From an uncultured Cytophagia bacterium (lineage in GTDB: Bacteria; Zhuqueibacterota; Zhuqueibacteria; Residuimicrobiales; Residuimicrobiaceae), in NCBI GenBank assembly GCA_964436305.1, contig CAYTCI010000007.1, positions 20,825 through 84,824 on the forward strand: 64,000 nt of DNA, written 5' to 3'. Position 1 is the stretch's first letter; the number at the start of each line of letters is the position of its first letter. The translations under genes and the position numbers were made by a program. Shown in pieces: positions 45,290 through 45,862 of this stretch. The notes beneath the pieces are model-generated. The model saw only the letters and a program-made list of their open reading frames with translations. It was not told where the DNA came from and did not search any database.

Positions 45290-45862
45290 TCAAGCTAGCC
45301 ACCAGCGCAGCAGGATCAGGACGGTCACCACCGAAAAGCTCTGCAGCGAATTGCGCTCGGTGCGCAGCGCCTTGCCGAGCGAGGTGGGCTGGCGCAGGCC
45401 TTTGCCCCAGGAGGTCAGCTGTGGCACGATGCTGGGGACGTTCCGCTCATACTCCTGATACCGCTCACCGAACTTGTTGCGCAGGAACTCCTCCTCCAGC
45501 GAGATGATCGCACCATACTGCAAACCATAAAGGAGGACAAAGATCAGCATCATCCACGGCATCCACGGCCACGCCATGATAAGAATGCCAAAGCTGAGAA
45601 AAAAGTTGCCGAGATAAAGGGGGTTGCGAAGATGACCATAGGGACCATCGGTCACCAGGACGTCCGCCCCCACCTCCCCCGTCGTGCGCGTGGCGCTGCC
45701 TGCATAGCGGAGCGACCACAAGCGGATGGCCTCACCGCTCAGGGCAATGGCAAACCCCGCCAAAAAAGAGGCGAGCGAGGTGCGGGCCAGGACCAGCGCC
45801 GCGATGATCAGCGGGATCGGCGTATAGCTGCGATATTTGAAAAAAAGTTCTCGACCGGACAT
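45290..45862 (-). CDS. Isoprenylcysteine-carboxylmethyltransferase-family membrane methyltransferase (LmtA-like)
   Basis: IRLWS, LVTDGPYGHLRNPLYLG, LEEEFL..KFG..Y.EY...VP. Confidence 0.8.
   Translation of the reverse strand: MSGRELFFKYRSYTPIPLIIAALVLARTSLASFLAGFAIALSGEAIRLWSLRYAGSATRTTGEVGADVLVTDGPYGHLRNPLYLGNFFLSFGILIMAWPWMPWMMLIFVLLYGLQYGAIISLEEEFLRNKFGERYQEYERNVPSIVPQLTSWGKGLRQPTSLGKALRTERNSLQSFSVVTVLILLRWWLA

Follow-up and report, generated by a model that had tools for sequence, protein, structure and literature searches.

An LmtA-like membrane methyltransferase gene conserved next to lpxB in several FCB-group phyla: a candidate lipid A methyltransferase

Background

The closest described system is that of Leptospira interrogans, in which LmtA uses SAM to methylate Kdo2-lipid A at its 1-phosphate (PMC4402001). 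The enzyme was described by Boon Hinckley et al. in 2005, work that we cite through PMC4402001 and PMC10248169. This activity was the premise of the initial annotation of the DNA analyzed here, and PMC4402001 supports the premise. A 2023 survey treats a methylated lipid A phosphate as unknown outside Leptospira (PMC10248169), a view that is at odds with a 2012 report of a partly methylated 4'-phosphate in the lipid A of Mesorhizobium loti, whose genome has no lmtA-like gene (PMC4103559).

Here we report on a gene of the isoprenylcysteine carboxylmethyltransferase (ICMT) and PEMT superfamily that lies directly before lpxB in a 64,000-nucleotide stretch of DNA from an uncultured bacterium of the Zhuqueibacterota (hereafter the window; G+C 61.5%). 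Proteins of this type carry public annotations no more specific than "isoprenylcysteine carboxylmethyltransferase family protein" or "Ste14". A literature search of incomplete coverage returned no paper tying such a gene to lpxB or to lipid A methylation in the phyla concerned, which lends weak support to the novelty of the association.

Results

The methyltransferase gene

The gene occupies positions 45290 to 45862 of the minus strand, with its ATG at 45862 and a TGA stop at 45292-45290, and from Pfam, NCBIfam and an AF2 model its 190-aa product is taken to be an LmtA-like integral membrane methyltransferase with the ICMT/PEMT fold. The sequence bears out the location, length and distance of 7 nt from lpxB first given for it, the sole correction being that it is read from the minus strand. 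The start was placed at 45862 because all 23 aligned homologues are 186-201 aa long and begin at one and the same position, with a common N-terminus of the form MxxRxFFFKYRSYTP. Immediately 5' of the ATG the sequence reads AGGAAGAGG. A longer, 371-aa reading of the same frame, extending up to 46405, was rejected, as the homologues are about 190 aa with a common start; the extension runs over the upstream oxidoreductase gene in a different frame. Three plus-strand open reading frames of 396-638 aa (43591-45507, 45837-47636 and 42387-43577) were likewise set aside as GC-rich antisense artefacts, since they are without family support while the minus-strand genes they overlap match their families strongly.

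Fold and cofactor site

The protein scores above the gathering thresholds of two Pfam models, PEMT (PF04191; 43.5 bits, 4.8e-11, cut-off 25) and ICMT (PF04140; 27.5 bits, 4.4e-6, cut-off 24), and with its SAM-binding motifs and multi-helix membrane fold belongs to the superfamily that they define. A profile built from 24 homologues matched the solved ICMT structures 5vg9/5v7p (1.3e-13) and 4a2n (3e-8). The AF2 model (pLDDT 85.7, pTM 0.82) shows about five membrane helices, and its top Foldseek match is again an ICMT, 5v7p, with a TM-score of 0.51 on the query. The homologues show little or no variation in the SAM-binding motifs GPYGHLRNPLYLGN and EEEFLxxKFGxxYxxY, and the same holds for the forms GPYxHxRNPLYxGN and EEExLxxxFGxxYxxY in 120 representatives with 26-68% identity to the window protein. 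Within that set R79, P81, Y83, N86 and E123 never vary, and N80, E124 and Y138 seldom do.

Beyond the ICMT core, the protein continues with a conserved ALR(S/T)E(R/K)xT motif and a last helix (residues ~162-189), in which E169 does not vary among 24 close homologues and hardly varies among the 120 representatives. This C-terminal extension is found throughout the clade and is absent from both ICMT controls, while the LmtA family model covers the protein up to model position ~198; on this evidence the extension appears to be shared with LmtA. The distribution of charges fits a predicted N-in topology that would leave the 51-80 loop and the 122-170 segment on the cytoplasmic side, and such a topology agrees with the N-terminal fusion of relatives to a cytoplasmic LpxB-like domain (see below).

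Compared with the better-known members of the superfamily, the window protein shares with ICMT/Ste14 (5v7p/5vg9 from Tribolium, 4a2n from Methanosarcina; PF04140) the fold and the RxPxY...EE...FG..Y..Y SAM-binding motifs, but has RNP where ICMT has RHP, adds the C-terminal (S/T)E(R/K)xT motif and helix, and is encoded among LPS genes. Its match to the ICMT family model NF040696 (isopcys_mtase) is confined to residues 68-148 and, at 35.1 bits, stays below the cut-off of 160. To our knowledge, CaaX-type prenylated proteins, the substrate of ICMT, are not a feature of bacteria. The PEMT/Opi3 model PF04191 is the top-scoring one in Pfam and is passed above its cut-off, but it is a broad, superfamily-level model, and the genomic context gives no pointer to phosphatidylcholine synthesis. 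MddA, the methanethiol S-methyltransferase (NF045656), belongs to the same superfamily, but is matched at only 28.4 bits, far under its cut-off of 270, and has an unrelated context.

Relation to LmtA

Among curated NCBIfam families the best match is LmtA itself (TIGR04571; 83.6 bits, 1.8e-23), in an alignment that pairs residues 7-182 with positions 14-198 of the 252-position model. With 83.6 bits against 35.1 for isopcys_mtase, LmtA is the best-matching characterized family, and the concern that the protein might group with PEMT instead was not borne out at this level. All 120 clade representatives match the LmtA model (best E 1.5e-32), and in nine of nine further clade members scanned singly it outscores the ICMT model. 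Two genuine ICMTs show the reverse order, with LmtA and ICMT scores of 31 and 57 bits for the Aliiglaciecola protein and 48 and 63 for a Tribolium fragment. The margin of the window protein over these true ICMTs on the LmtA model (31-48 bits) is thus about 35-50 bits, so that the specific LmtA signal, read as it is through a family model, may be called modest.

The kinship first claimed with LmtA therefore holds as to nearest curated family and as to the reversed order in the ICMT controls, but not as to equivalence: at 83.6 bits the protein lies far under the 325-bit cut-off of TIGR04571 and, by that measure, is not an LmtA equivalog. The two are alike in being Ste14p/ICMT-fold membrane proteins, their alignment is collinear, starting at the N-terminus and continuing into the C-terminal extension past the ICMT core, and the genomic context of the window gene points to a lipid A substrate. 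They differ in that the window protein, with 190 aa, is shorter than the model of 252 positions, the last ~54 of which have no counterpart in it, and in that its clade comes from FCB-group phyla rather than Spirochaetota and has the gene within an lpxB-lpxK operon, its activity being a prediction. As judged through the TIGR04571 model, these proteins appear as a distinct clade of ~190 aa whose nearest characterized family is LmtA, and we would class them as a new and phylogenetically remote member, or a sister clade, of enzymes of the LmtA kind.

A scan of species-representative genomes returned FCB-type relatives and one gammaproteobacterial ICMT, with no Leptospira protein among them. Five relatives in the same superclade (P0128, P0136, P0143, P0160 and P0201) are tandem methyltransferase-methyltransferase fusions of 410-604 aa, and in P0128 the first domain aligns with the LmtA model as far as position 247 of 252. 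A protein search with this domain, the most LmtA-like that we found, retrieved a ~240-aa Omnitrophota clade and again no Leptospira protein. These ~240-aa relatives form a large clade (P0269-P0388) with an LmtA-like C-terminal tail, and its two members with an organism name come from Candidatus Omnitrophica MAGs. Two ~240-aa members whose surroundings were inspected (L072:6001-6723 and L073:6001-6711) had no LPS gene neighbors, so that this clade does not strengthen the link to LPS; one is flanked by trp/his genes and adjoins a tyrosine-phosphatase-like gene, the other adjoins an EamA fragment.

The operon in the window

The lpxB gene, encoding a lipid-A-disaccharide synthase of 383 aa (44131-45282, minus strand; Pfam LpxB 304.6 bits, 1.1e-90; TIGR00215 280.3 bits, cut-off 190.25), has its ATG at 45282, separated from the methyltransferase stop by a spacer of exactly 7 nt (45283-45289), and a GAGGA overlaps the stop codon. 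It is followed on the same strand by a gene for a DUF374 acyltransferase-like protein (43420-44124; PF04028, 101 bits), by lpxK for the tetraacyldisaccharide 4'-kinase (42396-43436; Pfam LpxK 325.8 bits; TIGR00682 240.4 bits, cut-off 91.95), which overlaps the DUF374 gene by 17 nt, and by a gene for a sigma-54 NtrC-type regulator (40896-42296).

Upstream, likewise on the minus strand, lie genes for a GnnA-like Gfo/Idh/MocA oxidoreductase (45915-46916; NF040723), an ArnC-like GT2 polyprenyl-phosphate glycosyltransferase (46935-47951; Glycos_transf_2 118.8 bits; NF007986 (ArnC) 222.5 bits, below the cut-off of 529), a DUF4292/LolB1-like outer-membrane lipoprotein-sorting protein (48000-48812; PF14125 38.8 bits; NF053559 32.8 bits, below the cut-off of 50) and, as the first gene of the run in the list of open reading frames, a TPR-repeat protein (48817-50823) that is kept upstream in the closest loci (L001, L002, L004 and L005). 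Neighboring genes in this run overlap by up to 17 nt or stand up to 99 nt apart. Positions 50916-50893 hold a terminator-like hairpin that belongs to the EamA gene upstream of the run. A scan of the operon for promoters and terminators counted about as many as expected from shuffled sequence, and a search for transcript data found no RNA runs containing the region.

The oxidoreductase has UDP-GlcNAc 3-dehydrogenase as its best match (201 bits, under the cut-off of 450), and in about 35 related loci an oxidoreductase is the gene next upstream of the methyltransferase; the counterpart in locus L059 lies between fabZ and lpxA and scores 260.7 bits, also below 450. A gnnA gene beside lpx genes is presumably also the arrangement in Acidithiobacillus. 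We regard the oxidoreductase as a candidate GnnA and its presence as a hint at a GlcN3N (all-amide) lipid A backbone as in Leptospira; it stays a hint because no gnnB-type aminotransferase to complete such a pathway turned up among the scanned open reading frames of the window.

Several other features of the window were noted. A route for the periplasmic glycosylation of lipid A, LPS or another envelope polymer could consist of the ArnC-like GT2 from the lpx operon together with a large YfhO-like membrane protein encoded at 20339-22948 on the plus strand. At 17030-20249 and 31193-32233 there are further genes of the envelope glycan type, for a class I SAM methyltransferase, GT4 and GT1 glycosyltransferases and a GT9 heptosyltransferase-like protein. 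A 678-aa protein encoded at 52475-54511 on the minus strand joins Dak2, FakA-middle and DegV domains, and would be a fusion of the FakA-like kinase and the FakB/DegV-like fatty-acid-binding parts of the fatty acid kinase system. Two adjoining response regulators, each with a receiver domain and DUF4388, are encoded at 35276-36361 and 36370-38541 on the minus strand.

Linkage to lpxB in related genomes

Our scan of species-representative genomes gave 58 loci, of which 51 were informative after we left out six that are cut off at or just after the gene and the gammaproteobacterial ICMT. In 49 of these 51, lpxB lies directly downstream on the same strand, with a median gap of 7 nt and a gap of 23 nt or less, overlaps of 1-4 nt included, in 38 of the 49. 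Identity to the window protein among the lpxB-linked loci falls from about 80% down to 40%, and the MAGs that carry them belong to KSB1/Zhuqueibacter, Calditrichota/Caldithrix, Ignavibacteriales and the Melioribacteraceae (Ignavibacteriota). The usual gene order is GnnA-like oxidoreductase, methyltransferase, lpxB, DUF374, lpxK and NtrC regulator, and the DUF374 gene after lpxB is kept in most of these loci. Because 49 of 51 informative loci retain lpxB downstream, the adjacency is far beyond chance, and this genomic linkage is the strongest evidence for a role in lipid A biosynthesis. The synteny across FCB lineages that the initial annotation proposed to look for is thus present in several of them, and the possibility it allowed for, that the gene might be unlinked to lpx genes elsewhere, did not materialize, as lpx or other LPS genes adjoin it in many genomes and lineages.

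Among loci with ample downstream sequence, a single one (L035:6130-8647) has the methyltransferase gene without lpxB after it, and the ~2 kb that follow contain no recognizable lpx gene. In one Ignavibacteriales MAG (L053:7581-8473) lpxB appears to be broken into three reading-frame pieces, which could reflect an assembly error or a pseudogene. A gene for a HAD-IB "putative phosphatase" (PF06888) takes the place of the oxidoreductase in three loci (L053:6238-6972, L056:1243-1974 and L061:232-957), where it lies 3 nt or less from the methyltransferase gene or overlaps it, giving the order HAD-methyltransferase-lpxB; the carriers are Ignavibacteriales and Melioribacteraceae MAGs and one high-GC contig.

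Distant relatives and fusions to LpxB-like domains

A search of 1.84 billion cluster representatives gave 254 relatives at E <= 1e-30, from which ten distant ones (29-45% identity) were sampled for their surroundings. Two (P0125 and P0140) lie upstream of lpxB, one follows lptF-lptG, one has a GT9 heptosyltransferase gene on either side and another is found before a GmhA-like SIS gene; at three of the ten no LPS context was found. The remaining two (P0240 and P0225) are fusions in which a divergent LpxB-like (GT19) domain stands N-terminal and an LmtA-like methyltransferase C-terminal, with lengths of 615 aa (L059:8001-9848) and 461 aa (L060:171-1556), respectively. Since this domain order, LpxB-like first, reverses the gene order of the window, the fusions are not read-through artefacts. 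The P0240 fusion is encoded in a cluster that runs ompH, lpxD, an unknown gene, lpxC, fabZ, GnnA-like gene, lpxA, lpxB, fusion and UshA-like metallophosphoesterase, so that the fusion gene directly follows a separate canonical lpxB. Synteny with lpxB, fusion to LpxB-like domains and location within lpx clusters together associate the family functionally with lipid A biosynthesis. In a crude neighbor-joining tree the lpxB-linked members fall together, other LPS-linked members just outside them, and members without LPS context and the Omnitrophota clade further out.

Discussion

Based on these observations, we suggest that the gene product would be an integral membrane methyltransferase that has the ICMT/PEMT fold and depends on SAM, that its gene may be co-transcribed with lpxB, the DUF374 gene and lpxK, and that it is probably coupled to them in translation as well. 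The likely substrate would be lipid A or a late intermediate of the Raetz pathway, a proposal that follows from the retention of the fold and SAM site, from LmtA being the nearest family, and from coupling or fusion to lipid A enzymes of the cytoplasmic face. That the enzyme acts on lipid A or LPS we consider probable on this comparative evidence. The most likely reaction would be O-methylation of the 1-phosphate on the cytoplasmic side of the inner membrane, ahead of MsbA/Lpt export, leaving the lipid A head group with one negative charge fewer. The choice of site rests on analogy with LmtA and its methylation of the 1-phosphate of Kdo2-lipid A (PMC4402001), and we regard the 1-phosphate as having about an even chance of being the methylated position. 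The tight coupling to LpxB raises the further prospect of action at a stage before that of LmtA, with lipid X or the disaccharide 1-phosphate as the acceptor. Lipid A phosphate methylation, as initially annotated, is thus favored by the linkage to lpx and other LPS genes, by the nearest family being LmtA and by the GnnA-like neighbor, and is tempered by an LmtA score far under the cut-off and by a 1-phosphate site that we infer.

The main rival places the methyl group on another anionic group of LPS, either the 4'-phosphate or a carboxylate of inner-core Kdo or a uronic acid. Carboxylates are what the founding members of the fold methylate and are the usual acceptors of ICMT-type enzymes, and lpxK, whose product installs the 4'-phosphate, is within the same operon; the methylated 4'-phosphate of M. 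loti, made without an lmtA homologue, indicates that other sites and enzymes exist (PMC4103559). Distant relatives, moreover, adjoin GT9 genes, a GmhA-like SIS gene and lptFG, and not lpx genes alone. However, the nearest curated family is a 1-phosphate methyltransferase, and the tightest and most conserved partner of the gene is lpxB rather than waaA or core genes, and we consider another site on LPS unlikely.

A role outside LPS or as a scaffold is less likely, given the conservation of the catalytic motifs and the pattern of linkage. The enzyme could in principle modify a phospholipid or another membrane lipid, as a PEMT/Opi3-like enzyme or on a polyprenyl compound, with its lpx linkage arising from the clustering of envelope-lipid genes. 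Such a function would accord with PEMT being the top Pfam match (43.5 bits), with the clade members that have no LPS neighbors and with the ArnC-like polyprenyl-phosphate glycosyltransferase in the same operon. Yet loose clustering hardly explains a median gap of 7 nt to lpxB over 49 of 51 loci in several phyla, independent fusions to an LpxB-like domain, or the recurrence of varied LPS genes beside distant members, and we hold this explanation to be improbable. Least probable of all, and in our view very doubtful, is that the protein is mainly a membrane partner or anchor recruiting peripheral LpxB or an LpxB-like paralogue, with catalysis secondary or lost: LpxB-like::methyltransferase fusion proteins exist and the spacing suggests tight translational coupling with lpxB, but the SAM-binding motifs, invariant or nearly so in 120 divergent representatives, argue for retained catalysis, and the fused LpxB-like domain of L059 accompanies a separate canonical lpxB.

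An LmtA-like clade methylating the 1-phosphate of lipid A, coupled with the lpxB operon, is the best explanation as a whole, and one that we would neither favor nor disfavor in absolute terms. A wider proposition, that several FCB phyla (KSB1/Zhuqueibacterota, Calditrichota and Ignavibacteriota) make phosphate-methylated lipid A as an integral part of their Raetz pathway, by way of this lpxB-wired clade with its fusions to an LpxB paralogue in some lineages, is more tentative, and we lean somewhat against it.

Conclusions

These comparisons suggest that methylated lipid A may not be confined to Leptospira. A reduced charge of the head group, affecting cation bridging and the binding of cationic peptides, is a plausible consequence. 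The relevance to immune recognition first put forward is speculative and not directly applicable, because the metagenomes that contain the window sequence are from wastewater, sediment, sludge and digesters; with wastewater and sediment organisms as carriers, any bearing on human immunity would be indirect. If the proposed function is correct, a charge-removing modification of lipid A would extend well beyond the spirochaetes, to at least three environmental phyla, a set of enzymes would become available for comparison with LmtA, and the recurring gene for an "isoprenylcysteine carboxylmethyltransferase family protein" in lipid A clusters would be explained.
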